This document shows positions 12,286 through 53,509 of a stretch of 64,000 nt of DNA, piece after piece. Every line of letters starts with the position of its first letter. The stretch's first letter is position 1. Under the pieces are notes generated by a model that saw nothing but the letters and a program-made list of their open reading frames with translations, was not told the DNA's origin and did no database searches. Origin of the DNA: Tubulanus polymorphus (taxonomy: Eukaryota > Animalia > Nemertea); assembly GCF_964204645.1 (NCBI RefSeq), contig NC_134034.1, positions 7,290,914 to 7,354,913 on the forward strand, read 5' to 3'. A program made the position numbers and the translations under genes.

Positions 12286-12533
12286 AGAATAATAGATTTT
12301 TAAATAAAAAATATTAAAAAAACAATAACTTCAACTAGCTAGTGAATTCTATTATATTTTTAATATTTTCTTTTCAAAAAAGAATACTTTATATCACAAA
12401 TAAAAAATACAAAAAAAACAATAACTAATACTAAAATTCTTTACCCTTAACTAAGCTAGTATTAATCTAAAGAGATACTGGTATCATTTGAAGAATACTT
12501 ATAATATTTTTTTGCTTTTTTTCTCTAATATAA

Positions 12534-13127: not shown

Positions 13128-13496
13128 ATGAGTGATGGCGTTAAGAAAAAGGTTAGATCCGAGAAACAAATTAAATGGGCAAGAGAATTAGGTAAAAGAT
13201 CTTCAGAATTAAAAAAAGCTAAGAAAAAGAAATTAACTGATATAAATGAATCACAGACTTTATCTGATATTGATTCAAATAATAATCCATCTGATTCTTC
13301 TAATAGTGGACGAAATAATTACTTATATATTACAATTGGATTAGTAACAGTTATTATATTATCCGGTGTAATATATAAATCAAAATTCAAATCTGATGAT
13401 AAAGATGATTCCAATGACAATAAACCTATCATACCAGAAAATAAGTCAAATCATAAAGTCATTGAAACTAAATCTGAATTATTATTAATGGATTAA
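13128..13496 (+). CDS. Small basic protein with single TM helix
   Basis: RSEKQIKWARELG motif shared with 45291-45644; hydrophobic segment YITIGLVTVIILSGVI. Confidence 0.7.
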   Translation: MSDGVKKKVRSEKQIKWARELGKRSSELKKAKKKKLTDINESQTLSDIDSNNNPSDSSNSGRNNYLYITIGLVTVIILSGVIYKSKFKSDDKDDSNDNKPIIPENKSNHKVIETKSELLLMD

Positions 13497-13502
13497 AATA
13501 AG

Positions 13503-14608
13503 ATGAAAAAAGAACAATATTTAAGAGAGTTATATTATAACCCAGAAAGTGAAGTATCATATTCTAACGTTACAGAATTATGGGGTAAAATTAAATCTGA
13601 TAAGGAAAATGGCAATGGTGCCGTATGGCACCCACATGGTGATATAAAATATAGTGAATTAAAATCATGGTTACAAAATCAACCAACATATCAAATCCAC
13701 AAGAAAATGGATAAAAATTATTTAACAAGAAAAGTTATGGTTTCATATATTGATCAACAATGGCAAGCAGATTTAATAGACATGAAGAACTTAGAGGAAT
13801 ACAACAAAGGATATTTCTGGATACTGAATGTTATAGACATATTCAGTAGATACGCATGGTCAATTCCAATCAAAAATAAAACTGGAATAGAAGTAACAAA
13901 TGCTTTTAAATCTATATTTAAAGAAGCTATTCCAGATAAGATACAATTTGATGAAGGTAAGGAATTTTATAACAAACATTTCAAAAAAATATTATCTGAT
14001 AACGATGTAGATTATTTTTCAACACATTCAGATAAAAAAGCATCTATTATAGAAAGATTTAATAAAACATTGAAAACTAGAATGTGGAAATATTTTACTG
14101 CTAATGAAACATATAAATATATCGATGAGTCTATAAATATATCAGATGATTTAGTGAAAGGTTATAATAATTCTAAACATTCAAGTATTGGTATGAAACC
14201 TATACAAGCTAGAAAAGAAGATAATTCGGAAATAGTTTGGAATAATTTATATGGCGCATTTGTCACACATGATTTCGGTGAACCTAGATTCAAAATTGGA
14301 CAACACGTAAGAATATCTAAATATAGAAAAACATTTTATAAAGGTTATACTCCAAATTTTACAGAAGAAATATTCAAGATTAAAAAGATAATATTAACTA
14401 AACCATTTGTTTATAAATTAGAAGATCTAAAAGACGAAGAAATATTAGGTTATTTTTATGAACAAAAATTATCACTTGTACCAAATCCAGAGGAAATAGA
14501 ATACAAAATAGAAAACTCTTAAAGGAAAAAAGTATTCTTTGGTGAAATATAAAGGATACGATGATAAATTTAATGAATGGATTTTATCTTGTAAAATTAA
14601 ACGAATAA
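13503..14608 (+). CDS. Polinton retroviral-type integrase, C-terminal chromodomain frameshifted
   Basis: WQADLID, IDIFSRYAW, IQFDEGKEF, ERFNKTLK; chromo remnant LVKYKGYDDKFNEWI after 14522. Confidence 0.95.
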
Positions 14609-15220
14609 ATGGAAAAAGATTTATTTATATTTGAACCGCATAATATGTTAGTTACTGGAGTAACCAATTGTGGTAAAACACATTTCATATTAGATTTGTT
14701 AGAAACTATTTATAAGAATCATTTTGATAATATAATATTATTCTGTCCTACTTATGAAATGAATAAAACATATAATAGAGATATAGTTAAGATGAAAAAG
14801 TTTATTATATTAGATCCTAAAACAGTAAAAGAAAATTTAGATAATTGTATAAAAATAGCAATTGATACTTATAAAGGATCAAATACATTATTCATTATAG
14901 ATGATTGCGCAAATTTACATGATTCAAAAGTTAAAGAAAGTGAGTTATGTTATCTAGCTTTCTCTGGGAGACATTTTGGGATAACAACATGGGTTTTAAA
15001 TCAAAAATATAATTCAATTGTTAAAGACTTTAGGGAGAATATAAGATTTCTAGTTTTATTTTATAACAAAGATAGAAAATCTATGCAACAATCATTGGAA
15101 GAAAATCAAATTATACCTACTGAGTTACATGATGAATATATGAATAAATTAAAGAATAATAAAGGTTCAAAATTATTACTGAGATTACAATTTCCCTATG
15201 AATATAAATTTATAAAATAA
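14609..15220 (+). CDS. A32/FtsK-like DNA packaging ATPase
   Basis: Walker A GVTNCGKT, Walker B FIIDD, GRHFGI arginine-finger motif, conserved Q. Confidence 0.93.
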   Translation: MEKDLFIFEPHNMLVTGVTNCGKTHFILDLLETIYKNHFDNIILFCPTYEMNKTYNRDIVKMKKFIILDPKTVKENLDNCIKIAIDTYKGSNTLFIIDDCANLHDSKVKESELCYLAFSGRHFGITTWVLNQKYNSIVKDFRENIRFLVLFYNKDRKSMQQSLEENQIIPTELHDEYMNKLKNNKGSKLLLRLQFPYEYKFIK

Positions 15221-15239
15221 CTATTTATATATCTATGTA

Positions 15240-15326
15240 TTAGATACCCTATTAGATACCCTAATACCTGATACCCTATTAGATACCCTAATACCTGATA
15301 CCCTAATACCTGATACCCTATTAGAT
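15240..15326. repeat. GATACCCTA minisatellite between convergent genes
   Basis: Six GATACCCTA units with TTA or ATACCT spacers. Confidence 0.85.
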
Positions 15327-15419
15327 AAAAAAATAGAAACTAAAAACTTAAATAGAAACTTAAATACTTAAAACCCCCTTTTTTATTTACTATTATTTTA
15401 TACAATTTTCAACCTTTAT

Positions 15420-16291
15420 TATTATTTGATTGTTAGATAATTAATTTCTGAATCACTTTCACTATCAGACCCTAACAATTTATTCAAATACTCTACCGTA
15501 TCTTCATGAATAATTGGTTTATTGATATACTTATTAGGCATCTCAACTATATCTTTATTTTCTGATTTAAGTTTCATAGAATCTTTATTATCAATGCGCT
15601 TTCCTGTATTTTCATTATTATATTTATTAGTGTTTGCTCCTTATATTTCATTTACAGTGTTTGATCCTAATATTTCATTAGCATCAGTTAAATCTAATTC
15701 ATCTTTATTAGGTGTTGCTAATAAAAAATCTTCATATAATTCTTTACCATTTACTTTTTTATTTGAAACAAATTTTGTAACATATCTAAATGGGTGTTCT
15801 TTAAATTCTCTTAAACCAACACGTTCTATAACATTAGTAATATGTGAATTTGTATTCATATGTTTATTTCAATTTGATGGAGCGTTTGAAAATTCACCTT
15901 TACAATAATCACAATAATTTCTATTTTTACTAACATTTAATATTATTGCATTATTATATGTAGAAGGTATTACATTATTAGATGTAGTAGGTATTACATT
16001 ATAAGATGTAGTAGGTATTACATTATTAGATGTAGAAGGTATTACATTATTAGATGTATTAGGTATTACATTATTAGATGTAGTAGGTATTACATTATTA
16101 TCAATTACATTACTTAAATTATCAACAACTTCACTTTTATTATTATCGATTTCTATTAGTTTAGTTTTATAAATTTTGAAAATAGGATCAAATATCAAAG
16201 CTATATTACAAGGTATTACATAATATAAACGATCATTATTTTCATGTGTATCGATGTATGGAATATGTTTATATACTTTACCTCCTTCCAT
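15420..16291 (-). pseudogene. Zn-finger protein with NNVIP(T/S)TS repeats (broken by stops)
   Basis: 24-bp tandem repeats ~15950-16110; YCDYC...H.....H finger spanning a stop; downstream end approximate. Confidence 0.6.
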
Positions 16292-16323
16292 TTAATATAA
16301 GATTTTTTATTAAAGTTTAAATT

Positions 16324-17572
16324 TTAATACATAACACTATCTAATTGTGAATTTACAATATTTAATTGCGCGTCAGATATAATATAAATGTGCATTTTGA
16401 AATTTAGACTTCCTTTTTTCTTTGTCATGAATAATTGTATTCCATCTTTAGTGTTTTGTAATTTTTTTCCAGAACCATGTAATGAATTATCCTCTGTTGT
16501 TCTAAAATCTAACCATAATGCATATTTATTACCGGTATAATAATCAATTTGATTAATGTTACAATTTTCAGATGATTTCACTTTTTCATTCATAAAATGT
16601 TTTCTAATTTCTGGCCATTGATCAATCATTCTCATTCCTTGACAAAATATTTTGTTTGCTATTCCTTCGATAGTTATTTCTACTTTTGTTATTTCAGGAT
16701 TATAATACTTATCAACTTGTATTGCACCATTAGAATATGTTGCAATGGTAAAAAATATTAATATACCTTTAATAGATCTTCTTGGGAAGTTAATATTCTC
16801 ATTAATTATTTCATCATTTGCATTAATAGTTACAGTTTTAAATTTATCAATATAATCATATAATAATAAAAATCCTTGATTGTATTTAGTTTGAATTATA
16901 CTTGCAATATTTTCATCAGTTACTGTATCATATTCTAAACATATATTCGATAATTTATAACTCATATCTTTAACAACGCTAGATAATACAATTTCATTTA
17001 CAGGAGCAAATGTTATTTCGAATATAACGTCTTCTTGAATTGCGTATTTATATAAAGGTGCATTATTATTTATCAATTCAAAGTCTCATGGAATTTTATA
17101 TTTGCTTCCATAAATCTTTTTTATCAAATTATCTGCGGTACGAGTTACTATTGCGTCATTAGCTCCTGATCTTAATTTATTTTGGTTTTCTGATTGGATG
17201 CCTTGAAATATCATATTATTTCTATTTTCTTTAGTTAACCATAAATCTTTATAATGCATAAATAGATTATAATCATCTAATGAGAAAACTGTTTCTGGAC
17301 CAATCTTTATAGTTAACTTTTTTAATCAAATATCTTCCAACATTATCAACAACATAATTAATATCATGACCTGTTAATTTTATATCAGCTGATAAATAAA
17401 TACTATTTGGAACATAAAAAGTATTTTGTGTTAATCTAGGAATTCTAACATATAAAGTTTCATCGGGATTAATATTAGAAGGGTTATGAGTAATTATATG
17501 ATGTGATCTTTCTGCTTTAATAGCATTAGATATTCTATGATTCTTCGAAGGATTGATATAACTCCCACTCAT
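16324..17572 (-). pseudogene. Major capsid protein (putative double jelly-roll), frameshift and stop
   Basis: ~415 codons, beta-rich; HNPSNINP..LYVRIPRL, LWLDFRT..D..LHGSG, YIISDAQLNI motifs recognised from invertebrate Polinton-like MCPs; further copies at 48250-48800 and 52631-53480. Confidence 0.75.
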
Positions 17573-17592
17573 TTATTTAACAAAAGAATTAA

Positions 17593-19283
17593 TTATTTAT
17601 TTTTGATCATGTTTACTAACCCAAAAATAATTGCACTTACAACTGTAATTAAAAATAAAATAATATGTTCAGCAGCAAAGTTAAGAATATTCCCTGCAGA
17701 TTTTAAAACAAACCCAACAATCGATGCAATAACTCCAGGTAAAGCTGCAGCAGATTTTTTAGATAGTTCCCATAAATATTTTGCTAATTTTTTTAAACCA
17801 TCCTTAACTTTATCTTGTGTAGAATTATTATCTGGGGGTTTATCTGGTTTTTTTGGAGTAGGAGTAGATTTTAATGAATTTGATATTGCTAAACCAATTG
17901 TTGTAAATAACATAGTTACAGCTGTTAGAATTGAAAGAATTGTTATTCCTTCTAACTTAAATAATAATCTTATTCTATCTTTCAATGATAGTTTAGAATC
18001 TGATTTTATTATTAAATCTGTAAAATAACTTTTAATTTTTTGATATGATTAAGATCATATGATTTCAATAATATGTCTCTTTCTTCTTTTTGTAAATTTA
18101 TGTTATATTTTAAATCATCTATTTCTTTTTCTAAAGCTAACTTTCTGCTTTCATAATCAGGTTCATCTCTATTTAATTCTAATTGTTCTAATTTTTCATT
18201 TGCAATAGCTAATTCTTTTTCTAACATGGTTATTTAAGAAAATCTCATATTAATATTAGCATTTACATCGGCTGATTCTTGTATACCTTTAATTTCTCTA
18301 CGTGTTTGTTCAGGAAATGCTTCTAATTCTTCATCAGTTAATTTAAGTAATCCTTTTTCTAGTAAAGATTGTATTCGATTTATTCCAGTTTCAGTACCGG
18401 GCGTATCTAAAACACTAATCATATCTTCTTCAAATGAATTCATTGTATCCAGTAAGTTATCTAAACGTTTTCCTAATTGTAATTGACTTGAATCATTATC
18501 AATTGGTTGAGTGTCTCTTCTCGATGTTTCTGGTGTTGAAGATCTTAATCTATCTGATCGATCTCCATATTCTTCCATTTCTGGATCAACATCAGTAGGA
18601 TTTAAATTTGGATTTTTAAATGGTAAATATTTGTTAATATCAATTTTAGGAATTGGTTTTTCTTTATTTATTCTATCGATTGCATTCCATATAATTCTGA
18701 GAAATTCTCTACCACCTTTTGAACCTTCAATTGTAGATCTATATCGCATTCCAGGTTCAAAAATATTTTCTTGACCCATTCTAGATAATTGAATTGATAC
18801 ATTTTTGTTATTGAATTCAACATTATAATACCATGCATCATTTTTAAATTCTAAATTATTCATGAAAAATGGGTCATCTTTTAAAATTTGTTCTACAACA
18901 CCTTCTGAACCAATTTCATCTATTTCATCTTTTGGTAATAATACGTTAACAATTGTATATATTACTCTATTTTTCATTAATTTTAATTGATATTTCATAA
19001 GAGGATCAGTTGTATTTACTAATCTTTCCATTAAATCCTTTCTAGATGTTGCGGTTCTAATAACTAACCTTTCGGTAGCTGTCATATATTCTTTAAATTC
19101 TTTACGCGTTTCATAATCATAATCATCACCATCATCATCATAATCGGGTATATTTAAATTATTATTATATCCTGGCTCATAACCATCATTAAAACTTGTT
19201 TCACTAAAATCAGGTTGTTGTTCATCACTTATACCGGGTTCATCTAAAGGATCCAATGGAATATCTTCTCCACCTTCTGCCAT
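17593..19283 (-). pseudogene. Acidic/coiled-coil protein with C-terminal membrane helices (split into 3 ORFs)
   Basis: ORFs 18234-19283, 18012-18227, 17593-17985 contiguous; hydrophobic/amphipathic C-terminus. Confidence 0.65.
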
Positions 19284-19338
19284 TTACATAATAAAAAAAT
19301 TAAAATTTAAAATATAATATTCCTATAATATAGTATTT

Positions 19339-20658
19339 TCATGATTTATTATCATCATTTAGTTTAATTATTTCATGTTGAATAATATCAGTTTTTATAT
19401 CTTCTGATGTATCGTAATCTTTTATTTTAGAATCATTATTTAATTTAATATAATTTGTTTTAGTTTCAGTTGATTGAATGTGTTTTTTATTTTTTTCACC
19501 TTCCATTAATTTTGGAGCAGTAATAATCTTTTTATTTATATCATTTAATCCAAATGAATTATTTATTTTTGCAGTCTTGATTAAATTATTATAACCAATT
19601 ATATTTCCCATCTTTAGTACTAAATCATTAGAAATAATTAATAGATTAGGACCAATACAATAATTTAATCTAATATGTGATTTATCTAAATAATTTTGAT
19701 ATCTTACAATGTTTTCTGGAATCGATCTATTTTTATCATTATGAATTGAATCTTCAAATAATACTTTGAATTGTTTCTGCGTATCAAATGATGTATTCAA
19801 ATTTCCAATTATTGGGGATCTTGTTTCAACTTGCGCACCTAAAATACATATCAAATAAGTTCTAATAGATTGATTTATTCTTTGTATACCTGATTTTGTA
19901 AAACCTTCATTATTTTCTAAAATGAAATAAACCCAACCGTTATTGTTTTCTTGTTTTAAATTATCATAAAATTTCGGTAATTTATTGAAATTTAATGTTT
20001 CTAAATCCTTAGTTTCTATTTTACCATAACCTAATTTATTATTATAGATATTATAAAAACTATTAGATGGTATGGGAAGTGCACAATATTCTGCAATCTT
20101 TTTAGGGCAAGGAAGTGATCTTATTGTTCCAATTTTTGTTCTAAAATCAGAATTATTTATATCTATATTAAATTCATTACAAATTTTATAAAACTTTGAT
20201 AAATTAATATTATTATCTAATTCTTTAAAATACCTAGATCCTGGTAAAGCGCACTCTTATTCATTTAATATTATTCTGATTTGAAAGTATGTATGAAATC
20301 TAAATAAACTTTGAATTAATTTATATTTAGAATTATTCAAATGATCATTCCAACTAATTCCACAACCTGTTGTTGCACAATAAACAGCAAAATTTGATTG
20401 GTTCTGCCAATACTTCATATTAGATTTTAATAACCATTGTTTTTCATCTTTCAATTTTTTAAAATCAATTAAATATACATGAAATATATTTTCCATCTTT
20501 GCATTAAAATTATTAGTTTCAGTGACATAAATTTCTAAATTAGTTAATGAATCTAAAACTTCATTTCTATTTGTAATATCTTTATTAAAATCTATTGCTG
20601 GAATATTATATTTAATTGATTTATTATATTGGAAAGCTTTTGGAAAACTATCTACCAT
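19339..20658 (-). pseudogene. Conserved Polinton-like hypothetical protein
   Basis: WQNQ.NFAVYCATTGCGIS..HL...FRFH.Y motif; ORFs 20257-20658 and 19339-19854 flank a disrupted middle. Confidence 0.65.
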
Positions 20659-20674
20659 TTATATAATAAAAAAA

Positions 20675-21116
20675 TTAATAATTTATCAATTCTTTTAATA
20701 ATTTATCTTGTTCTTCAACTGTTATATGGCCATTTAAACTTATTATATAATCTAGTGTATTCTTTAATTTATTAATTTCTTTTATATTAGTTTTAATTTT
20801 TTCTTTATTACTTTTTATATTTAATTTTTAACTTATACCAGTTAAAACACTTAACTAACGAACTTAATCCTAATACGCCAATTGATATAGCTAAAGGTGT
20901 TAATGGACTGAATATTGCTAGAAATGTTATTACAGAACTAATTGTAACCGAACCGCTTATAATAAGATAATATATAATTTTACTTTTTAAATATTTTTTC
21001 TTTTTAACTTTTAAGTCACTTTCAAATTCTAATATTTGTTTTTCTAAATATGTTTTTAATTTAGTTTTATTTATATCATGAGGAATAATATCAATATTAT
21101 CAACTTTATCTTCCAT
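20675..21116 (-). pseudogene. Two-TM small protein (frameshifted)
   Basis: Hydrophobic hairpin; homolog at 48837-49263. Confidence 0.65.
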
Positions 21117-21132
21117 TTATTTAGAAAAAAAA

Positions 21133-21558
21133 TTACTGATTAGTAAATTTATATGCTACAAATATAACAATAACAGTTCCGCCTAAAATCCATATTATTT
21201 CATATTTCTGTTGTTCTTTACTTGGGGTATAATAATCTGATAATTTAGGTTTGTATAGATGTAATTTTTCTTTATTTGTTACCGCGTTATATAAACTCAT
21301 TGCATCATCAACTGATTGAAAATCTCTATGCGAAATCTTCTGATCATATAATTCCTTGTTAATATAATCCATATAGTTTTGTCTTTTTTCTCTATATTCT
21401 TCTGCTGCTTTATTGTATTTCTCTAATGCTAAGTTATGTCTTCTTTGTTCTCCTAATGAACTATTTTTATAAATATGCTTAAATAAATAACCACCACCAG
21501 TAAATGCTAAAGCGTTTACAATTGCCGATCCTATAATAGTTATAATTGCAGAAGCCAT
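21133..21558 (-). CDS. Conserved small membrane/virion protein
   Basis: Hydrophobic N and C termini, central RRHNLALEKY helix; near-identical to 49282-49704. Confidence 0.8.
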   Translation of the reverse strand: MASAIITIIGSAIVNALAFTGGGYLFKHIYKNSSLGEQRRHNLALEKYNKAAEEYREKRQNYMDYINKELYDQKISHRDFQSVDDAMSLYNAVTNKEKLHLYKPKLSDYYTPSKEQQKYEIIWILGGTVIVIFVAYKFTNQ

Positions 21559-21582
21559 TTATTTAGCAAAAAAATTATGCAT

Positions 21583-21804
21583 TTATATGGGAGGAATATA
21601 TTTTTGTTTTTCCAAATAATCAATAGTTAAATTAGATAAAGTAACTGCTAATGTTAACTTTAAAATATCATTTATATCAAATCTATCAACATTAACACTT
21701 CCCATTTTGAATACTTTTTTTAATACCATTGAATAACCAACAGTTCCAACTGATAGTAATGCTCCATTATATAATCCAGTTATTATCCACTTATTATCAC
21801 TCAT
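21583..21804 (-). CDS. Small hydrophobic protein
   Basis: 73 aa, TAAATG start, homolog at ~49730-49948. Confidence 0.7.
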   Translation of the reverse strand: MSDNKWIITGLYNGALLSVGTVGYSMVLKKVFKMGSVNVDRFDINDILKLTLAVTLSNLTIDYLEKQKYIPPI

Positions 21805-22161
21805 TTATTTATCAAAAAAATTACTATCATCAAAATATTTAGTTATCTTATTTATGATTAATTCAACATTTATTTCATTACTAGTTTCATTTGTATATAT
21901 TTCAATTATTATTTTTTTAATATCATCGATGATAAAATCTTCATCTAAATTATAAAATCTTAAAGATTCTCTAATTAAATTAGTAATCTTTTCTACATTT
22001 AAAGTTTCTTTATCTATTGTTGTTTCATACTCAAATGTTGTTTCATTAGAAAATGTAATATTTTTGATATGTGTAATTACATAATTAATGTTAAATTTCA
22101 TTTCTTTCTCACGTTTAAAATCAAATCCAAAACATATACTCGGTCCAATAGTTATATTCAT
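21805..22161 (-). CDS. Hypothetical protein
   Basis: Conserved with 49953-50306; TAAATG start. Confidence 0.72.
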   Translation of the reverse strand: MNITIGPSICFGFDFKREKEMKFNINYVITHIKNITFSNETTFEYETTIDKETLNVEKITNLIRESLRFYNLDEDFIIDDIKKIIIEIYTNETSNEINVELIINKITKYFDDSNFFDK

Positions 22162-22177
22162 TTATATAATGAAAAAA

Positions 22178-22945
22178 TTACTCTTTACATCTTATAACTA
22201 ATTCATAAATTACAGGAAAGTTATTCAAATCAATTAAATAACCATTATGATTTCTTATTTCTAATTTAAAATTATTAAATTGAAGAATGCAAGGTTTAAA
22301 ATCACATTCTCTTAAATTATAATTTATTTGAGTTCCAAATTGTTTAACATTTTTCAGCGGTAAAATATTTAATATACTAGAATTACAAATTGTATCTTTA
22401 GTTGCTTCAAATGTTTTTGTTGGGTCATTTAAATTGCAATAAATATAAAAATGCGTAAAAGGTATTATATTTGTATAAGTTTCGATACTTGAATAATGTC
22501 TATCCGGAAGAATTCCAAACAGTTTAGCTAAAGGTTTTCTTACTAGAAATCTATGTTGTTCATTAGTTAACTTTATTCTTATTTTATTCGAACTATCATT
22601 TTTGATGAATTTAATTTCAAATCGAGCAGCTGAGCCCATTTTTAAACGAGCTCTTTTATTAATTTCTTGCGCTAATGTTTCTAAATTGTATAATCCTGGT
22701 TTTAGATAAAGATGAAACCATTTATTCAAATTTCTAACATAAATTTTAAAAGCTAAATGATCAAGACTTTTATTCGATATATTATGAAAAGAATTACATA
22801 AAGAATTACATAAACTTATATTTACTAATGTTAAATCTACACAATTCTTAAATTCTCTATCTAATTGTACTAGTAAATTATGAGATTTATAATTTGTAAG
22901 CCTTCTTGAATCAACAAATATTCTGTATTCTTTTAATTCCGCCAT
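22178..22945 (-). CDS. Putative minor capsid (penton) protein
   Basis: IFVDSR, NSFHNIS, PGLYN, YIYCNL, LEIRN..G..IDLNN motif pattern typical of single jelly-roll pentons of Polintons/virophages. Confidence 0.7.
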   Translation of the reverse strand: MAELKEYRIFVDSRRLTNYKSHNLLVQLDREFKNCVDLTLVNISLCNSLCNSFHNISNKSLDHLAFKIYVRNLNKWFHLYLKPGLYNLETLAQEINKRARLKMGSAARFEIKFIKNDSSNKIRIKLTNEQHRFLVRKPLAKLFGILPDRHYSSIETYTNIIPFTHFYIYCNLNDPTKTFEATKDTICNSSILNILPLKNVKQFGTQINYNLRECDFKPCILQFNNFKLEIRNHNGYLIDLNNFPVIYELVIRCKE

Positions 22946-22962
22946 TTATTTTACATATTTTC

Positions 22963-23316
22963 TTATTCGAAATCTATTTCATGGTGCCCTTTTTCATTCT
23001 TACCTTTGTATACGAAATAGAAATCTCCAGAACATAATTCTTCTAAATCTTCACTTGATAATCTATGAAATCTATCTGGTAAATATGTTCTAAATTTATA
23101 TGTATTTCCTTTTAATCCTTCATATTCTAAGTGTATAACTAATTTATCTCCATATTTGTTAGTAACTGTATCAATATTTGTAATTAGATATCTCTTATGG
23201 ATTGTTAATTCTGTTAACTTTTTGAATTTATAATCTACAGATTTTACATTTGTGATATCTTTTATTCTATCTAGAAATAATTTGTTGTTCTCACTGTGCG
23301 CTTGTTTACTCTCCAT
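22963..23316 (-). CDS. Small putative OB-fold/ssDNA-binding protein
   Basis: NKYGDKLV...YLPDRF motif directly downstream of PolB; homologs at 44411 and 56537; function inferred. Confidence 0.55.
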   Translation of the reverse strand: MESKQAHSENNKLFLDRIKDITNVKSVDYKFKKLTELTIHKRYLITNIDTVTNKYGDKLVIHLEYEGLKGNTYKFRTYLPDRFHRLSSEDLEELCSGDFYFVYKGKNEKGHHEIDFE

Positions 23317-24293
23317 TTATAATACATATTTTTATTAGAATTTGATTAACACGTTAGAATTCTTTTCATTATCTCGTTCTCTTTTGTTTCTTCTCTTTTA
23401 AATTTTAAGTATTCATCTAAATTACAACCATAAGCAACTGTATGAATTCCATCATCTAAAATATATCTTTTATCATCAAATGGGTTTTGAATTATCTTTT
23501 CAATTTCTTCAATAAACATTTCATGATCTTCAGATCTTAAACATTTCATCTTATGTTTTCTAACTTCTTCATTGAATATACAATTGATGTAATCTTTGAA
23601 ATGAATATTCTTTTCTACTACACTTTTGGTTATTCCTTTTAACTTTTTAGCTTCATGTTCTTTAGTTTTATATGAATACATTTTAGATCTAATACCTATG
23701 AACTCTATCATTTCTTCACCACCTAATTCATCCTTAAACTTCCCTGGAAGTTTTTTATTATCATTGCTAAACAATTCATGATTTTTAGGATAATTACTAA
23801 AATCAAAATGATGTTTTAATGCTTTTAAATCATCAGTTATGTTATCAGTTTTTATCTTTAATATGTAAGAATCTATATCAAAATATAATATTTCTATATG
23901 TTTTTCTCCAAAAAGTGGTTGTAATATATTATAATAGAATTCATACATTAGTAATTTTGATAATTCTAAAACTGAAGCGCCAACATAGATTGGTTTATTA
24001 AATTTCATTGATGTTCTTCTCATTTTAACTGCAGCTAAATTTTCATCAAATATTCTGTTACCAATGAACTTTAGGATATGTTTGTAAATGTCTAATTCTT
24101 TTACCATTACTAACTAACTCAATATCATTTCTATTTCTAATATTTTCACAAGTCTTACCATAGAATGCATTATTCATTAACTTGAAGAAATCTTTCTCAA
24201 AATCAGTTTTAGCTTCAGTTCTCTGTTTGGTGTTAAAATCTATATATTTTTCTAACCACTTAGATTGACTAAATGAAATATATCTATGTACTT

Positions 24294-26531
24294 TTTAGGC
24301 CAGCCGTAGGCTGAGCCTATTACTATACAAATGGAGCGAATTTAAATGACATGGTTTCCACACAAAAGGCTCTTTTGCTTGCCAAGTGAGGGCATATTCG
24401 AACAAATCACGTATTTAAGCGTAATCCATTCTCGGAATCGTAGCGAGCAGAATTTTGAAATAGGGTCTCATAAAAATGTTTTCTGCATTTTTCACGAAAG
24501 TTAAATCGGGAAAATTTCAATTTTTATCAGCCAATCAGGAAGTTGTGTCTTCCCTGTGATTGGTTTATCTGAAAATATCAGCAGCTGTTCACGTGAATTA
24601 TCGCGATTTCATTACTGGCGCTTTTGCGCATGACGTCATGTATCAACACGCGACAATACTTCCGCGTTCGCTACGTGTTCGCTGATTGGCCCATTTACTG
24701 GGAAATTCCACAGAAGCCTAATGTGGTTTGTTACAAGCGCTGTGATTGGCCCGACCCGATTCTGGCATGGCTTTAGCTTAGTGGGTTCGAATCCCTTGAC
24801 GGGTGAAGATGATGGATCCTATCAATATCTATTGAAACAAATAAGTTTCCCGGTTGGGCAGCCGCGGATATCTACCGGAAGTGTTCCGGTTCGATATTTC
24901 GAGGTTTCTTTGAATTTTGGAGTGATATTGAAATCCGGTAAATACCAGCGGTAGATTGTGAAAACCCATTGCATGATATTTGTATTACTTAATCAACGAA
25001 AAGCGTCGGGGCCGCGCCAGGAGTTTTCGTGATTCAAGTAGCGCAATAGCCTACTTCTTCGTGTTCGTCCACCTCAATTTTTACTCCGCCGATCTCTGAC
25101 ACGGCTCTGTCCCCGTCGGCGCTGTGATTGCACTTTCGTACCACCAAAATTTTTTATTTCTATATCAGGGAGGTCTGGAGAATAAAAAAGTCAAAATTTG
25201 GATATCACATAGGCCTGATTTCATCGAATAAGTCGACCATGGTCGTTACGTTTCCGTACTTATTACCACCTAAAACCGTCTGAACAATTTTGTCACAACC
25301 AACATTTCGTTTACAGAAATCAGGTGTTCACGTGAATCCGCGATATCGTCTACTGTTTTACTTCCGGGTTTTATTTTAAGGTTTAAAATTGTATTTCAAG
25401 ATCGATTTCTATGAAATCTTTAGTTGATTTGGTGTTTGGGAGGAATTTTTATTTGCTCTACAGAAAATTCATCCTTGACAATTGCGCAAGGTTCGCGAAA
25501 AAAAGGTTTTACCAAATCGGGTGTATGACCTTGATATGCTAATTAGCCATGTGCCCGAATTGCAAATTCAATCAAATTTTATTCTGCCAAAAAATGTTAA
25601 ATACAATTCGCTTTCCGAGAGTTAATGGTATGGTGATGGAACAAAGTTGTTTTGAGATGGGTCTTGAAGCTATTGAGGTCGAGAGATAACCATCTAGATA
25701 GTTCGTGTTAGTTCCAAAGTTTTGAAGACGCTTCAAGGTAATGTCTTGATATTTGTTTTATACGTGTATCTACCCTAGACACATCTTCAGGCCAAAAACT
25801 GGCCCTGTCAGATTCAAGATGGCCGACTGGCAGCCATTGTTGTTCGCCAAAATCAGCACTTTTTACACATTTTTGAAGTTTTCGAGGGAAATTTTGAAGA
25901 CACTTTTATCAATAACCTTGATCATTCGTATATATTTGTAGCCCCCAAGGGCCCATCGGCATGAGAAAAATTGAGTCGATCGGACTCAAGATGGCCGTAC
26001 TGTGACCTTTTTTGTTCCCAAAAATGTCAATTTTGGCCTGAATTCTGAGTACTGTAGCTTTCTAATGGTGCGCCATGTTTCATTGCAATTTGTAATGGGT
26101 ATTCTTTGGAAAGGGATCTTTTATATCCGAGAGGGTATTTTTGACCAGGCAATTATGACGCACTTGGCAGCCATCTTGGGGTCATCAGTACTCATTCGTA
26201 GGTGGAAAAAAAGTTTTTCCACATCATAATTGATACTTAAGCATATTTTGCTACTATAATCAATTGGAAAGTTGTAGCTCATGACATGTTCTATGATCGA
26301 GGTGAGTTTCAAGCTCATTGGTTTTTTTATGGCCACCAGGGGGCGTTGAACAATACAATAACTTAGTATTTCTATATTACATTCGTTCCTGCTGTCTGTG
26401 TTAACACACGATTTTACTATGTAAATGATATTGAGCAGGGAGTGTATATTGATAAATATAACCCACAGATTACATCATTTATAAAAAGCAAATCTGACAG
26501 GCTGGCCATTGTGCCCCTTGGGGCTCTTGTT
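24294..26531 (+). mobile_element. Helentron-associated non-autonomous element (HINE/DINE-like)
   Basis: Inserted in a T-run within PolB (GMILK|KVHRY); subterminal IR GGCCAGCC/GGCTGGCC; 3' hairpin GCCCC-tt-GGGGC followed by TCTTGTT. Confidence 0.78.
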
Positions 26532-29500
26532 TTAGGATCATTCCTTGTTTTAGATAAAACTTTAACATTCTATAGTGTACAACATAATTATATTTATCTT
26601 GTTGAGTTACCATTAACTTTTCTGTACGAATATGATTTTCGGGTTTAATTCTTTTTTGATACTTTGATAATTCTTCATGAGTTACATTTTTATGTTCGGG
26701 ACAGTAAGCTAGATTTCTGGATTTAAATTTAATATGTTCAGGATATTCTAAATCTACAACAAAGAAGTAACCAGTATCTGAATCATCTGCAATATCTAGG
26801 ATTCTTTTCTTCCAATCAAATTTATCATTATTTTCATTCTGTAAAACTTCAGTTAATTCAAATACTCCATAAGGTTGTGATTCCATCATTGCCCAACCAT
26901 ACAAATTATTTGCATCTATATATAATAATTTATATCCAGGGTTATCATTTACATTGAAATATCTATCACCTAATACACCTGAAACTCCTCCTCTTATAGA
27001 TTTTTCAAATAAAAATAATTGATCTATATTTGTTAACAAATCCATTTTTATATCTGTAAATTTTAATCCACAATCCCATGTTAAACCTGGTGATGAATAA
27101 CAATGACATGGATCAATATTGAAATATTTTAGGTTTACATCTCTAAACCTTTCAAATATATCGGTTAATAATAATACATCTGATTTTAGATATAAATCTA
27201 CTAATTGCCCATGATTTTCTATTTTGAAATGATTCCAAATATTCAATGTTCTATTATATACTTCATCTTTAACATATTCATTTTTTAATTCATCATAGAA
27301 TTGTTCTTTCAATAATTCAGTTATATTGAAATCATTATGTGATTTATAAAATGAATATGGAATTGCGCCTTTATATCTCATTAATTGAAAATCATCATTA
27401 TTTGGGTAGTGTTGCTTTAATATTTTCAATTCATCATCAACTAATGATTTTGATAAGTTATCTAATGAACTATTTAAAAATCTATATGAATCTATAAATC
27501 TTAGGCATCCAAATTGGAAAGATATATAATTCGCAGATGTTTTAGCTAACATTCTAAATTTATAAGTTGGTATTTTATCTTTTGATCTATTTGAATTTAA
27601 TCTTTCTATTTCATTATTAATTCTTCTATTTTATGGCATAACTGTTTGATAAATAAATGTGCATCATATCCTGATAGATTATGAAATATAACTGGTACAA
27701 AATTAATTTTCTTAGCTTGTAAGTTACAATTCTCATGTGCAGCGCCTCTCAACTTTCCGTTCAAATGATCATGGTCTCTTACTTTTTTATCTTTAAAATT
27801 AAATATCTTTTCACAATAATAACATTTATCTGCAAACGCAAATTCTTCTTTATCTTTTTCTGTCATTATAATTTCTATATTTGTATTCAATAATTTACTA
27901 AATCTTATTTCATATTCAATTAATAAGTCACAAAAATGATTAATAACATTTTCATTTCTGTAATGATAATATTCACTTTCAATTAGTTCTGGATTATCAG
28001 ATTTAATATATAACCCGAAAGCTGCAGCTGATTGATGAATCTTTTTAATAGTATTTGTTTTTGGTGGTTCATCTGAATAATCATTTTCATTAGAATTTAA
28101 TTTCTTTCTTTTATAATATATTTCTTTTCTATCTTGATCAGTTAATTCTTTATTTAATGATTCAAAATCTGAATAATCATTTTCATTAGAATTTAATTTC
28201 TTTCTTTTATAATATATTTCTTTTCTATCTTGATCAGTTAATTCTTTATTTAATGAATCATAATCTTTTGATAGATATAAAGGTTCTAATGTATAATGTT
28301 TTATATTGTTACCTTTTGTATTTGGTAATTTGATTAAATCAAATACATTTATCTTTATATTATTATCTCTTTCTATTTTTGGGATGTTTTTAATTCTAAC
28401 AGGATACTTATCTATCTTATAATTATTTTCAAATGGTTTATAATGAGTTAATCTAAAACTATGTGTAATATCTTCTGTTGGATGTAAGCAACTTATAATT
28501 GTCCACAGAAAACATTTATCATCTTCATTTTGTACATTAATAACAGCATTAGTTGTAAATGGTAGTTTAATATAACTCGATGCTTCAATATCTGGTTCTT
28601 TATAATATGATACATTATTTTCATCTATTGGTTTTGATTTAGTTAACTTATTATATTTTGTGTTATAAACATGTAAAGTCATAAATATTATTTCATCAAA
28701 TATTAAACCAGATCCTTCAAAATATTTCTCTTCTATTTTAGTTTTTACTTCATTATAACATTTATCTAATTTATCATCTATATGTTGTTTAGATATAATA
28801 TGTTGTGAATGAGAATTTATATTATATATTGGTTTATCTTCAGATTTTATAAACTTAACTTTAGAAGATATACTTATTTTAGGATATTCAACATCAGTTA
28901 TTATTTTTATAATATTTTTCATATTTTCTAAATGTTTTTTATTTTCTTCTAATGTTTTTCCTTTATGCAATTTAAACTCGATAGCTGCTGGACCAATATC
29001 ACTTTTAAATGCTTCGGTTATCTCTATATCTTTTTTATTATCTAATGAATTAATATAATTTCTTACATCTTCCATGTATGGCCTTTTATTGTTTAATTTA
29101 TTTTTTATGCTTTTAATTGTCTTCTGTTTCTTATCATTATCTTTATCAAAATAATCTTCACCTAAAATAACATTATTCATATTTCTAATATGACTTTTAG
29201 ATTTTAAATGTTCTTTATAATATCTTTTATCACTGAATGATTGATTACATGTATCACATTTGTATGTTTCTTTTTCATTCTTTAATTCATCTAATTTAGT
29301 TTCTAATATATCATCTTTATATTCTAGTTTCAATTTATTCTCTAAATGTGTTTTACTTTTATTGTGTCTTGCTTTTTGGGATTTATCTATATTGATATTA
29401 CCATGTTGGGCAGTAGTACTTATTTGTTTCCATTTTAATATCAAATTTTTTTTTAAATTGATTTTTAGAAGTTCAATGATATATAGGCTCAAATAGAATC

Positions 29501-29557
29501 ATGTTCTAGTATAAACAGCTATGCATTATTTCAATCACACTTTAATAATATTTTAAG

Positions 29558-29775
29558 AGTAATAGGGGTAATGGGCTTTCATATCAAAGGTTGAATGGTC
29601 GAGTTCATTAAAAACATATATTAAAAGTAATTCAAAACTATAATATATTTTCATAACCGTGTGTATTTCAGTTGAATATTATTATTATTTGAATATATTT
29701 GATTATATGAATTTGTGTATTGTAAATAAATCAATTGGTCGCGGAGCGGAGCGGTAGCGAAGTGGAGCGACCAAT
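29558..29775. repeat. Internal copy of terminal palindrome half (marks tandem duplication of right end)
   Basis: Reverse complement of ~9570-9796, sitting between two PolB N-terminal copies. Confidence 0.85.
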
Positions 29776-31463
29776 ATAACCCGAAAGCTGCAGCTGATTG
29801 ATGAATCTTTTTAATAGTATTTGTTTTTGGTGGTTCATCTGAATAATCATTTTCATTAGAATTTAATTTCTTTCTTTTATAATATATTTCTTTTCTATCT
29901 TGATCAGTTAATTCTTTATTTAATGATTCAAAATCTCCATATATAACAAATGGAACTTTATTTTTGTAATCATATTTTTTGAATTCTAATATTTTATCTT
30001 TTTCATTTGGTAAAACTAATTTACAATAATCATGATTTTCACATAAATGTTTATGATTAAATAATGTACTTTCATTACTGAATCTATGTAAACATTTTCT
30101 TCAAAGATATATTTTATGGTGATCATTTTCTGATTTAAAAAATAAATCTATTTGTTTAATCCACATATAATGATTTTCATAATATAGTATATCTATAACA
30201 TCGTTTGAATCATAATCTTTTGATAGATATAAAGGTTCTAATGTATAATGTTTTATATTGTTACCTTTTGTATTTGGTAATTTGATTAAATCAAATACAT
30301 TTATCTTTATATTATTATCTCTTTCTATTTTTGGGATGTTTTTAATTCTAACAGGATACTTATCTATCTTATAATTATTTTCAAATGGTTTATAATGAGT
30401 TAATCTAAAACTATGTGTAATATCTTCTGTTGGATGTAAGCAACTTATAATTGTCCACAGAAAACATTTATCATCTTCATTTTGTACATTTATAACAGCA
30501 TTAGTTGTAAATGGTAGTTTAATATAACTCGATGCTTCAATATCTGGTTCTTTATAATATGATACATTATTTTCATCTATTGGTTTTGATTTAGTTAACT
30601 TATTATATTTTGTGTTATAAACATGTAAAGTCATAAATATTATTTCATCAAATATTAAACCAGATCCTTCAAAATATTTCTCTTCTATTTTAGTTTTTAC
30701 TTCATTATAACATTTATCTAATTTATCATCTATATGTTGTTTAGATATAATATGTTGTGAATGAGAATTTATATTATATATTGGTTTATCTTCAGATTTT
30801 ATAAACTTAACTTTAGAAGATATACTTATTTTAGGATATTCAACATCAGTTATTATTTTTATAATATTTTTCATATTTTCTAAATGTTTTTTATTTTCTT
30901 CTAATGTTTTTCCTTTATGAAATTTAAACTCAATAGCTGCTGGGCCAATATCACTTTTAAATGCTTCGGTTATCTCTATATCTTTTTTATTATCTAATGA
31001 ATTAATATATTTTCTTACATCTTCCATGTATGGTCTTTTATTGTTTGATTTATTTTTTATGCTTTTAATTGTCTTCTGTTTCTTATCATTATCTTTATCA
31101 AAATAATCTTCACCTAAAATATCATTATTCTTATTTCTAATATGACTTTTAGATTTTAAATGTTCTTTATAATATCTTTTAAAACTGAATGATTGATTAC
31201 ATGTATCACATTTGTATGTTTCTTTTTCATTCTTTAATTCATCTAATTTAGTTTCTAATATATCATCTTTATATTCTAGTTTCAATTTATTCTCTAAATG
31301 TGTTTTCGTTTTATTGTGTCTTGCTTTTTGGGATTTATCTATATTGATATTACATGTTGGGCAGTAGTACTTATTTGCTTCCATTTTAATACTAAATTTT
31401 TTATTAAAATTGATTTTAGAAGTTATTCATTTATATTTTATTCATATATATGAATATTTTAAG

Positions 31464-46182: not shown

Positions 46183-46209
46183 TTATATAACAAAAAAATT
46201 ATTTGTGAT

Positions 46210-46480: not shown

Positions 46481-46481
46481 T

Positions 46482-47090
46482 TTAAATAAATTCATATTTA
46501 AATGGGTGTTGTAATCTAAATAGTAATTTTGATCTTTTAATATTTTTCAACTTATCCATATATTCATTATGTAAATCATGTGGAATAATATCATTTTCCT
46601 CAAGTGCATTTTTCATCGATTTTCTATCTTTATTGTAGAATAAAACTAGAAATCTAATGTTTTCTCTAAAGTCTTTAACAATTGAATTATATTTTTGATT
46701 TAAAACCCAAGTTGTTATCCCAAAATGTCTCCCGGAGAAAGCTAAATAACATAACTCACTTTCTCTAACTTTTGAATCATGTAAATTTGCGCAATCATCT
46801 ATGATAAATAATGTATTTGATCCTTTATGAATATCAATTGCTATTTTTATACAATTATCTAAATTTTCTTTTACTGTTTTAGGATCTAATATAATAAATT
46901 TATTATTTCTAGTAATATTTCTATCATAAGTTTGATTAAATTCATATGTTGGACAAAATAATACTATATTATCAAAATAGTTTTCATAAACAGTTTCTAA
47001 TAAATTTAATATAAAATAAGTTTTTCCACAATTTGTTACACCAGAAATTAACATATTATGAGGCTCAAATATGAATAATTCCTTATTCAT
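46482..47090 (-). CDS. Packaging ATPase (family B)
   Basis: GVTNCGKT, FIIDD, GRHFG; intact 202 aa. Confidence 0.93.
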   Translation of the reverse strand: MNKELFIFEPHNMLISGVTNCGKTYFILNLLETVYENYFDNIVLFCPTYEFNQTYDRNITRNNKFIILDPKTVKENLDNCIKIAIDIHKGSNTLFIIDDCANLHDSKVRESELCYLAFSGRHFGITTWVLNQKYNSIVKDFRENIRFLVLFYNKDRKSMKNALEENDIIPHDLHNEYMDKLKNIKRSKLLFRLQHPFKYEFI

Positions 47091-48218
47091 TTATATATTT
47101 TTAATTTTACTTGATAATATCCATTCATTGAATTTATCTGGCCATCCAACCCATTTTACTAAAGAATATTTTTTTCTTTTAATAGTTTTTGTTTTTAATA
47201 CTTTTTCAATTTTATATTCTTGTTCTAGATTTTCAGTAGTTAAACTTAATTCTTCTTCGTAAAAGTAGCCATCAACTTCTTCACCATCTAAATCTTCTAA
47301 TTTATAGACATATGGTTTTGTTGTTATTACCTTTTTTATTTTATATATTTCTCTAGTAAAATTTCGATCGTATCCTTTATCAAATATCTTTTTATACTTA
47401 GAAATTCTAACATTTTGACCAACTTTAAATTTATGTTCACCAAAATCATCTACAAGAAATACTCCATATAAATTATTCCAAACAATTTCAGCATTTTCAG
47501 GTTTTCTAGCATCAATAGGTTTCATTCCAATAGAAGAATGATAAGAATTATTATATCCTTCTATCAATTTTGGTAAAACATCAATCCATTTAAAAGTATT
47601 ATTTGCTGTAAAATATTTCCACATTCTTGTTCTTAATGTTCTATTAAATCGTTCAACAACTGCTGCTTTTTTATCTGATTTTGTTGAAAAATATTTAATA
47701 TTATGATTATCTAAGAGTTCATGAACAAGTGAATTATCAAACTCTTTTCCATCGTCAAATTGTATTTTTTCTGGTTTTAGTTTATCATCCGAAAGAAATT
47801 TTCTTAAAACATTTGATGTTTGTACAGCATCTTTTCTATAAAGTGGGAAGCTCCATACATAACGACTAAAAATATCAATTATATTCAATAACCACCAATA
47901 ATCATCATTATCTTTCTTAACATTTTTCATATCAATTAAATCTCCTTGCCACTGTTGATCTACATAACTTACCATAGTTTTACGAGTTTTATATTTTCTA
48001 ACAATTTTTTTATGTGTTGTATATGTTGGTTGTTCTAACATAAATTCATTTATGTCTTTATATTTAACAAAATTTTGTGGGATTATCTTATCTAATTTAT
48101 CTTGTTTTACTTTACGCCATATATTTTTAGTAGAAGAATAAGCAACCGAACTCTCAGGGTTGTAATATAAATTTCTTAAATATTTTTCTTTAGTATTAGG
48201 AGTTTTTTTACCTCCCAT
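47091..48218 (-). CDS. Integrase with chromodomain (family B), intact
   Basis: WQGDLID, QFDDGKEF, ERFNRTLR; YKIEKVL...LVKWVGWPDKFNEWI chromodomain. Confidence 0.95.
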   Translation of the reverse strand: MGGKKTPNTKEKYLRNLYYNPESSVAYSSTKNIWRKVKQDKLDKIIPQNFVKYKDINEFMLEQPTYTTHKKIVRKYKTRKTMVSYVDQQWQGDLIDMKNVKKDNDDYWWLLNIIDIFSRYVWSFPLYRKDAVQTSNVLRKFLSDDKLKPEKIQFDDGKEFDNSLVHELLDNHNIKYFSTKSDKKAAVVERFNRTLRTRMWKYFTANNTFKWIDVLPKLIEGYNNSYHSSIGMKPIDARKPENAEIVWNNLYGVFLVDDFGEHKFKVGQNVRISKYKKIFDKGYDRNFTREIYKIKKVITTKPYVYKLEDLDGEEVDGYFYEEELSLTTENLEQEYKIEKVLKTKTIKRKKYSLVKWVGWPDKFNEWILSSKIKNI

Positions 48219-48249
48219 TTATATATCGTTAATTTTAACTTTATATTTC

Positions 48250-50322: not shown

Positions 50323-51081
50323 TTACTCTTTACATCTTATAACTAATTCATAAATTACAGGAAAGTTATTCAAATCAATTAAATAACCATTATGATTTCT
50401 TATTTCTTATTTAAAATTATTGAAATGTGGAATACAAGGTTTGAAATCACATTCAGTTAAATTATAATTTATTTAAGTTCCAAATTGTTTGACATTTTTT
50501 AATGGTAAAATATTTAATAAACCAGAATTACAAATTGTATCTTTAGTTGCTTCAAATGTTTTTGTTGGGTCAATCAAATTGCAATAAATATAAAAGTGTG
50601 TAAAAGGTATTAAGTTTGATCTACCTTCTGCGTGTGCTGTAACAATATTTGGGTTAATTCCTAACAGTTTAGCTAAAGGTTTTCTTACTGTAAATTTAAA
50701 TTGTTCGTTATTATCTAACCTAATCTTTATTTTATTAGAACTATCACTTTTTAAAATTCTAATATTAAATTTAGAATCACTTCCTAATTTAGCTCGAGCT
50801 TTTCTATTAATTTCTTGTGCTAATGTATCTAAATTATATAATCCTGGTTTTAAATATATAAAATACCATTCATTCATTTTTTTGTAAAAGATTGAAAAAA
50901 TTAAATGTTCTAGACTTTTATCCGATATATTGTAAAATGAGTTACATAAACTTATATTTACTAATTTTAAATCAACACAATTCTTAAATTCTCTATCTAA
51001 TTGTACTAGTAAATTAATTGATTTATAATTTGTAAGTTTTCTAGAATCAACAAATATTCTGTGTTCTTTTAATTCTACCAT
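50323..51081 (-). pseudogene. Putative penton (family B), premature stop at 50473
   Basis: Homolog of 22178-22945. Confidence 0.68.
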
Positions 51082-51149
51082 TATTTATAACATAAAAAAA
51101 TTACCGCTCATCACTAAAAATTAATTTTAATAAAATTTTTCCTAAATAA

Positions 51150-52472
51150 ATGGATGAGAAGATAGCATGCGAAATTAGTGGTGAACTTCTAAGAAAAAGT
51201 AATATGGCTCGATATATGAAAAAACATGATGAAAATTATAAACCCCCTAAAATAAACTTTCCAAAATGTAATAGATTATTCTCAAGAAATTATGTTAAAA
51301 AACATTCAGAGAAGTGTAGAATTAATGGTGCAACGGCTAATGTTGATAGTAATGAAAGTAATAGTAATTGCTGAAGTTGAACCTGAAGTTATTTGGAAAA
51401 GACCTTTCTTATTCTATGATAAGGATAATATAAAAGATCATTTCTGTGAGCCTTGTCGAATAAAATATAACCCTGAAAATATAGAAGATTGGGAGAATCA
51501 TCAATTTCGTAAAGTACATATAGATAAAAGTTCTAATAAATTTGAAACTGAATTTAATGAAAGAAAAAATAATTTATTAGAAAAAATAAAATATGAGAAA
51601 ACGTTACCAGATAATAAAGAAACAGTTGAAAAGTTAGAAAAACAATATAATGAATTAACAAGAAAAACATATTATTGTAAATATTGTAAATTGATTATTA
51701 CAACAAGTAATTCAAATCTACATAATAGAACAATAAAACATAAAGAAAACGTAAGAAAATACCAAGAGCTTAATGAAGATCTATTACCAATAAATTATAA
51801 ACAAAAATGCCCACAATGTATTTATGCGACCTTAAGACAAGAAGGTACTGTGTTATTTTGTGTTGATTGTGGATGGCAAAAGAATTTATGGGGTGAAGAA
51901 AAAACTAGAAATTTTCTCATAGATCCAAAATTAAATTATCTAGATGAAATTTTTAAAATATTTTCTATAGAAGATCATACACCAGAATATATGCAATGGC
52001 TTGAAAAAATGAAAATAATAGAAAATAAAAATGGTGAAATAACTAAAAAAGACATTATAAATACAATTATTCCATCAACATTTAACACAAAACAAAAGAA
52101 AATGTATTTATATATATTATTTAACGATTATTATGAAAAACCTAAATTAACAGAAGAAGATACGGAAAATATAAAAAAAAAATATTCAAACAAATATTAA
52201 TGTATCATTTGGAAAATAGAATAACAGATTCAATAAATTATGAATTCTTTTTAAATAAGATAAATAAGATTGTAAATTATTTAAACCTAGATATTATAAT
52301 TCCATTTGACGAATTAACAAACAAAAAGAAACAAAGAGAGCGAGATGAAATGTGGAACAAGATAGAACTTTATTTAAATGAAAAAAATGGAATGGAAGAA
52401 GAACCTAAACAATTAAATGAAAATGAAGAAGCCAGTAGTGATTTCGAGTTTGATGATATAGATCCATTTTAA
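51150..52472 (+). pseudogene. Multi-Zn-finger protein with C-terminal VLTF3-like (poxvirus A2-type late transcription factor) domain, split by frameshifts
   Basis: CPQC...EG...CVDCG ribbon; KLNYLDEIF; INYEFFLNKI...KKKQRERDEMWNKI resembles the VLTF3 C-terminus. Confidence 0.6.
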
Positions 52473-52630
52473 TAAATAACCATAAGGTAATGTTTTTATA
52501 CCATCATCTAAAATATGCCTTTTATCATCAAATGGATTTAAACTAGTTTTTTCAACTTCATTAATGTACATCTCATGATCTTCTGATCTTAAACAATTCA
52601 TTTTGTGTTTCATTACAATTGATTTATATA
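52449..52630 (-). pseudogene. PolB extreme C-terminus (family B)
   Basis: KTSLNPFDDKRHILDDGIKTLPYG; matches 6213-6370. Confidence 0.88.
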
Positions 52631-53480: not shown

Positions 53481-53509
53481 AAAGATAAAGTTAAAATTAA
53501 GGATATATA

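Follow-up and report, generated by a model that had tools for sequence, protein, structure and literature searches.

A VLTF3-like protein fused to zinc fingers and poxvirus-type gene starts in a Polinton family of the nemertean Tubulanus polymorphus

Introduction

A long-standing question about the Polintons of animal genomes is whether they live as autonomous nuclear viruses or as parasites of large viruses. A locus of the nemertean Tubulanus polymorphus raises this question in a specific form: an initial annotation proposed, from the DNA letters and their open reading frames, that one of its genes encodes a homolog of VLTF3, a late transcription factor of poxviruses, fused to C2H2-type zinc fingers, and that this captured factor redirects or competes for the RNA polymerase of a helper virus. 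VLTF3 is kept by viruses that have no polymerase of their own; therefore, a VLTF3 gene alone is no proof of a helper. Here we describe the gene, its homologs and the gene starts in "the window", that is, the whole stretch of 64,000 nucleotides that was analyzed (assembly GCF_964204645.1, contig NC_134034.1, positions 7,290,914 to 7,354,913). The occurrence of VLTF3 in polintoviruses is already known (PMC11131425, citing Krupovic and Koonin 2016); what is new here is an element-wide start signal of the poxvirus type.

Results

Polinton copies in the window

Decayed and rearranged copies of Polinton/Maverick elements (~22–26% GC; the DNA is ~77% AT) are clustered in the window and interspersed with the remnants of Ty3, BEL/Pao-type, Harbinger-type and SWIM-bearing transposons. 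The hallmark set of Polinton/Maverick elements (Polintoviricetes) is present, that is, pPolB (DNA_pol_B_2), RVE integrase (rve) and A32 ATPase (Pox_A32), all of which exceed their Pfam cut-offs. The putative capsid ORFs have no match in Pfam or PHROGs, to a double jelly-roll major capsid or otherwise; their labels as minor and major capsid, as well as the assignment to group-2 Polintons, are our assumption. A search for terminal inverted repeats and target-site duplications found no paired ends, the copies being fragmented and rearranged. The features that are discussed below are collected in Table 1.

Table 1. Positions of the VLTF3-like gene, its parts and its Polinton neighbors in the window
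Feature	Position	Strand	Remark
Second, more decayed VLTF3-like copy	4586..6217	+	insert at ~4843-5470 splits 4586-4842 from 5471-6217
PolB 3' end with intein/LAGLIDADG-like insert at motif C	6213..8200	-	motifs only
Related Polinton block: integrase, ATPase, putative capsids, pPolB with endonuclease VII	11620..31426	.	TAAATG starts likewise
RVE integrase with chromodomain and A32 packaging ATPase, block of the VLTF3-like gene	46482..48218	-	both starts in TATATAAATG
Putative minor capsid gene, divergently oriented neighbor of the VLTF3-like gene	50473..51081	-	paralog at 22178-22945
Promoter-like start: CATCAC box, T-run, TAAATAAATG enclosing ATG	51109..51152	+	layout of a poxvirus late promoter
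Piece 1: two degenerate C2H2-type fingers	51150..51374	+	every ligand retained in P0001/P0002
Piece 2: finger 3, helical hairpin, U1-type finger 4, C4 Zn ribbon, start of VLTF3 helical core	51373..52200	+	
Finger 3	51445-51519	+	in piece 2
Finger 4, U1-type	51676-51741	+	Pfam zf-U1, 31.4 bits (cut-off of 22 exceeded)
C4 Zn ribbon	about 51808-51870	+	directly precedes helical core
Piece 3: C-terminal VLTF3 core and acidic tail	52194..52472	+	Pox_VLTF3 E 7.5e-4, 19.7 bits; hhalign
3' remnant of protein-primed PolB, tail-to-tail with the VLTF3-like gene	52480..52630	-	rearrangement of the locus cuts at 52630

Several further features of these blocks were recorded. The N-terminus of pPolB (27606–31426, minus strand, and 9876–10127, plus strand) combines zinc fingers of the U1/UBZ type with an endonuclease VII domain, and its 5' part is duplicated (28254–29473 and 30206–31424, 98%). 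At 11620–12285 (plus strand) an ORF that starts in TAAATG has a weak HNH-like Pfam match and a 74% identical relative at 40781–41481. Tandem repeats of 114 bp and an imperfect palindrome of 11-bp units occupy 10916–11501 and 46214–46424; these are possibly terminal or origin sequences.

A broken gene with intact relatives

The window contains three consecutive ORFs (51150–51374, 51292–52200 and 52146/52200–52472) that had been joined into one protein. This assembly into a single gene is borne out: break 2 is crossed in frame by a natural ORF of the second copy (5877–6065), the intact relatives P0001, P0002, P0004 and P0005 match all three pieces with their order kept, and the reads differ from the window at the breaks. 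The window gene is a decayed, broken pseudogene copy.

The relatives were found by searching a profile built from the window pieces against 1.84 billion representatives; this search gave three matches, P0001 (E 6e-46), P0002 (1e-20) and P0003 (2e-5), and P0004–P0006 were added from the clusters of these three. Pieces 1, 2 and 3 are 42%, 44% and 58% identical to P0001 and 30%, 31% and 46% identical to P0002. The intact P0001, P0002, P0004 and P0005 comprise a C2H2 pair, a finger, a helical hairpin, a U1-type finger, a C4 ribbon and a helical core. Thus, the fusion of fingers and VLTF3 is real and conserved and not an artefact of joining frames, because intact relatives carry the whole layout; the order first read from the window (several Zn fingers, then ribbon, then helical core) is the same in P0001 and P0002. 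P0003 and P0006 consist of ribbon and core alone, without the extra fingers; these proteins have 281 aa, the size of poxvirus A2. The N-terminal finger pair is similar to CTCF fingers (E 8e-6), P0002 has a zf-C2H2_jaz match (E 6.6e-6), and similar fingers are found on the N-terminus of the PolB of the element.

Other searches were less productive. A word-indexed search found no homologs, protein-based scans of viral contigs and prokaryote genomes gave no usable locus, 2 of the 72 candidates in a metagenome locus scan matched (both by chance), and the ESM Atlas gave at most zinc-finger leads below 0.8. The finger-fused family is missed by Pfam; such genes are, therefore, probably under-counted. 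The existence of the family also weakens the use of VLTF3 as a diagnostic of Nucleocytoviricota, a claim made in PMC11253617.

The second copy and its PolB

A second copy had been placed at 4587–6212, tail-to-tail with an intein-bearing PolB. The copy is present; its span is 4586–4842 plus 5471–6217 rather than continuous, and it is decayed, with its own stops and frameshifts, no N-terminal fingers and an unrelated insert that is presumably LINE-like. Its DNA is 85–92% identical to that of the first copy. Between the two copies dN/dS is 0.62 (95% 0.37–1.12; 271 codons), which is indistinguishable from 1. The tail-to-tail arrangement is true of both copies (from 6213 onward and at 52480–52630), and the intein is supported by motifs only: the insert (6445–8200, with a partial tandem duplication, 6735–7316 and 7331–7912) contains LAGLIDADG-like words and terminates in Asn|Thr at motif C, a site that is uninterrupted in the other PolB (23346–24113). 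Pfam and NCBIfam scans gave no match for the putative intein. Inserts of the homing-endonuclease/intein type in Polinton PolB are on record (PMC11161782).

Is the protein a VLTF3?

The initial annotation suggested profile searches and structure prediction as checks on the VLTF3 assignment, and the outcome was mixed. In Pfam the assignment is sub-threshold: parts of the two copies score 19.7 and 18.7 bits with Pox_VLTF3 (PF04947), short of the gathering cut-off of 25, and the intact P0001–P0003 have no Pfam match to Pox_VLTF3. The homology is nonetheless supported by profile–profile comparison and reciprocal ranking. For these comparisons giant-virus VLTF3 loci were picked by a motif (the three that were checked all score 148–188 bits), and 45 of 70 complete proteins were aligned. 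With hhalign, the family matches giant-virus VLTF3 (92%, E 6.8e-7) over 186 collinear columns that run from the ribbon up to the C-terminal Trp helix, and after trimming (94%, E 1.4e-7) over 76 columns. In the reciprocal direction, when 117 VLTF3 ORFs and 320 other ORFs were ranked with the family HMM, the top 50 of 50 were VLTF3 ORFs, with a best E of 1.4e-10 vs 0.2 for the others. The NCLDV profile gives 8–10 bits for the window gene (with X at the break), P0001 and P0002; shuffled sequences reached these scores in 0/200, 0/200 and 1/200 cases, respectively, and P0003 scores below chance.

The divergence is extensive. Identity to the sampled NCLDV proteins is at most 21–32%. In a 38-row NCLDV sample (a biased sample selected by motif and without poxvirus A2), 41 residues reach a conservation of 90% or more, and 8 of these are present in P0001 as well as in P0002. 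Two motifs of the sampled giant-virus members, YKRxNHFNE and YYEH, are lost, and NFLxYxYVL belongs to the same set of motifs that the family does not match. Because the NCLDV-conserved residues are mostly lost, the core may serve as a decoy or may have been repurposed.

The family-only structure model is poor (pLDDT 51) and has no significant fold match, three poxvirus VLTF3 proteins appearing at ranks 28–33 with E ~1.5. A model of the intact P0002 with NCLDV rows added to the alignment reaches pLDDT 77 and matches many VLTF3 entries in BFVD (cowpox, TM 0.61 by target, 217 columns), matches that are partly circular because the NCLDV rows fed the alignment. PDB sequence searches found no solved VLTF3 structure, and Foldseek on the PDB gave nothing with E under 0.001. 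The core of the P0002 model aligns with a chain of a Pol III initiation complex (9k3b_V, which we take to be BRF2; Z 5.2, rmsd 3.4, 89 aligned) and a chain of a Pol I initiation complex (5n61_Q, presumably Rrn7; Z 4.7, rmsd 4.7, 103 aligned), and the finger-hairpin-finger part best matches a chain of a spliceosomal E complex (6n7p_I, which we assume to be Luc7; Z 5.9, rmsd 5.9, 100 aligned); Z values of 4–6 are background level, so all three are within background. Judged by its profiles, the protein is a true but very divergent VLTF3 homolog and not a Pfam-level member of the family.

Copies and arrangements in reads

Depth and variants were taken from a raw read set (X5) that may come from another individual. 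The depth is ~190–315 over the VLTF3-like gene, ~680 at the start of the putative minor capsid gene and ~780–825 over the putative major capsid gene. Letters specific to the window are rare (2/224 to 7/252 reads across four sampled sites), and the reads have a length unlike that of the window in 124 of 196 cases at break 1 and in 134 of 254 at break 2. From these counts we infer tens of copies per genome, with both breaks private to the window copy.

At position 51082, 321 reads diverge into the sequence that is seen at 22947; the reads therefore reveal two arrangements between the minor capsid gene and PolB, one with the VLTF3-like gene and one with the 117-aa ORF that fills this slot in the block at 11620–31426 (22963–23316). 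The VLTF3-like gene accounts for ~1/3 of the slots by reads and the other gene for ~2/3. The factor is thus accessory, because most family copies do without it in this slot and keep identical starts. The 117-aa ORF, encoded on the minus strand beside PolB, has no family match; it has a 27% identical homolog at 44411–44668 (plus strand), that is, in the same block as the VLTF3-like gene, and a simple replacement of the 117-aa ORF by the VLTF3-like gene is accordingly less secure.

The VLTF3-like gene is also flanked by an inverted duplication (44030–48625 and 53103–57243, arms 92–98% identical). Its junction (52630/52631) is absent from most reads, and 181 reads in X5 carry on as PolB from the remnant at 52630; the duplication is likely a local rearrangement that followed insertion.

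TAAATG starts across the element

Of 24 hand-picked Polinton gene starts, 20 lie in TAAATG. When all ORFs in the four Polinton blocks are considered, 24 of 50 ORFs of at least 60 aa start in TAAATG vs 68 of 740 ORFs shorter than 30 aa (Fisher p 2e-11). The 50 long ORFs are not all separate genes: some are duplicates, some are antisense and some are fragments from within broken genes; manual grouping into distinct genes gives 17 of 18 with TAAATG in at least one copy. The longer form WAWATAAATG occurs at 18/50 long and 7/740 short ORFs, and a T-run plus TAAATG at 13/50 and 3/740. With this short-ORF control, drawn from the same DNA, p ranges from 2e-11 to 4e-18, and the motif reaches –19. Outside the four blocks TAAATG is found at 0/17 ORFs of at least 100 aa and 3/48 of at least 60 aa; further TAAATG starts at 44066/57207 and 44411 belong to Polinton genes too.

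A poxvirus late promoter consists of a T-containing core, a gap of 5–7 bp and TAAAT(G/A) (PMC5294985), and the core of the poxviral polymerase reads TAAA directly, at intermediate promoters (PMC12917281). By sequence, the Polinton starts match the vaccinia late-promoter layout, with TAAAT(G/A) overlapping the start. Our literature search turned up no earlier description of TAAAT(G) promoters for animal Polintons; one may exist in subscription papers, in Repbase reports or in supplements.

Of the starts in the block of the VLTF3-like gene, 6/15 have a CATCAC box in the 45 nt upstream, vs 0/15 in the other block; removal of duplicates leaves ~4 independent sites, so that the box is a lead only. 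A promoter-like block of 44 bp (CATCAC box, T-run and TAAATG) is repeated ahead of two unrelated genes (44030–44073 and 44375–44418) and is possibly a cassette joint.

Discussion

Most genes of the element carry a late signal in the poxvirus style and, therefore, the element may well borrow its transcription machinery from a large helper virus. Our preferred reading, held tentatively and with slightly less than even confidence, is that the element is transcribed by the RNA polymerase of a poxvirus-like helper and that the VLTF3-like protein serves as its own initiation factor; the element-wide TAAATG starts support the dependence on a helper polymerase independently. Infection by the helper would bring the DNA of the element to a cytoplasmic virus factory, where the helper polymerase would read TAAA at every gene start of the element. 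The ribbon and helical core would dock on this polymerase in the manner of TFIIB, displacing the VLTF3 of the helper, and the N-terminal C2H2 pair would tether the factor to the DNA of the element, perhaps at the CATCAC box; this tethering would bias late transcription in favor of the parasite. A possible but doubtful extension is that this endogenous Polinton family represents provirophages of a poxvirus-like virus, with poxvirus late-promoter signals on the entire gene set, and that one subfamily captured the late factor of the helper lineage and added DNA-binding fingers that steer the helper polymerase to its own genes. The fixed poxvirus-type start signal makes the question of a helper testable, in sequence and by the 5' ends of RNA, and hints at the type of helper.

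A different reading has the element live autonomously in the nucleus: its VLTF3 homolog would be a TFIIB-like late activator that works with host Pol II, the C2H2 fingers would recruit this activator to promoters of the element, and TAAATG would be an inherited initiator. We consider this unlikely. It stands because ariadnaviruses retain TFIIB, VLTF2 and VLTF3 without a polymerase (bioRxiv 2026.08.29.747986). The use of VLTF3 with host Pol II is presumed for nucleocytoviricots that retain this factor and have no polymerase. The chromodomain of the integrase, which implies a nuclear stage, and the CTCF-like fingers also favor it. It accounts less well for the identical starts in copies in which another gene occupies the slot (~2/3 of the reads). 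A further point against host Pol II is the T at –3, in a start that is fused to the ATG, which makes for a weak Kozak context and agrees with initiation inside AAA.

The protein could instead be a decoy with which a helper-dependent element blocks the late transcription of its helper, that is, an anti-helper defense. The loss of most NCLDV-conserved surface motifs and the accessory distribution agree with this reading, and the promoter evidence serves it as it serves the preferred one; we judge it quite unlikely, since the late-type starts of the element's own genes would be blocked too, and the ribbon and core remain collinear over 186 columns. It is improbable that the protein has another role in nucleic acid metabolism (RNA or dsRNA binding, or replication), with the VLTF3 core repurposed as a scaffold: fingers 3–4 are of the U1/JAZ type, the finger-hairpin-finger part best matches the spliceosomal chain 6n7p_I and the PolB N-terminus has similar fingers, but the entire VLTF3 module including the ribbon is kept, and P0003 is ribbon and core without extra fingers. 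Finally, that TAAATG is a by-product of AT richness (~77% AT) or of stop-start coupling and the gene a passenger, as the inconclusive dN/dS (0.62, 95% 0.37–1.12) might allow, is very improbable and largely refuted by the short-ORF control (p 2e-11 to 4e-18, motif to –19), by the count of TAG or TGA before the ATG (0 of 50 long ORFs), by an in-frame ORF of more than 60 aa directly upstream at just 4 of 24 TAAATG starts and by an architecture that is kept in intact homologs at 30–58% identity.

Comparison with known systems

The closest relative of the protein is VLTF3 itself (vaccinia A2; PF04947 and PF08792; NCVOG0262), with which it shares the C4 ribbon and, behind it, a helical core that is collinear and ends in a K...W helix, and from which it differs by four extra zinc fingers ahead of the ribbon. 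As to the TFIIB-like factors, which have a Zn ribbon and a cyclin-fold core, the matches of the core to the Pol III and Pol I chains are at background level (Z 5.2 and 4.7).

The VLTF3 homolog is likewise accessory in coral polintoviruses, PLVs and MELD viruses (PMC11131425; bioRxiv 2026.06.19.733378; PMC8502044), for which the accessible parts of these sources mention neither a finger fusion nor a promoter analysis. The accessible parts of PMC12945077, PMC4642659, PMC6960288, PMC3671162 and bioRxiv 2026.10.13.758929 likewise contain nothing on a finger-fused Polinton gene. Small genomes that keep VLTF3 are known from the mriyaviruses (35–45 kb; PMC11253617) and the ariadnaviruses, which have no polymerase (bioRxiv 2026.08.29.747986); these are nucleocytoviricots that have VLTF2 too, whereas the Pfam scans of the window found no VLTF2.

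Two systems bear on the proposed dependence of the element on a large virus. The entomopoxvirus-associated PLVs of the mavpol2 clade are Polinton-clade elements of animals that have been proposed as parasites of a poxvirus (PMC11296320, in whose main text "promoter", "TAAAT" and "VLTF" have 0 occurrences); in their case the link comes from joint occurrence in occlusion bodies, whereas here it comes from the promoter and the gene content. The virophages Sputnik, mavirus and Gezel-14T use promoter motifs of their helper viruses (bioRxiv 2022.07.28.501842), as the element may do with its poxvirus-type starts; they differ from it in their protist hosts, their Imitervirales helpers and the motifs themselves.
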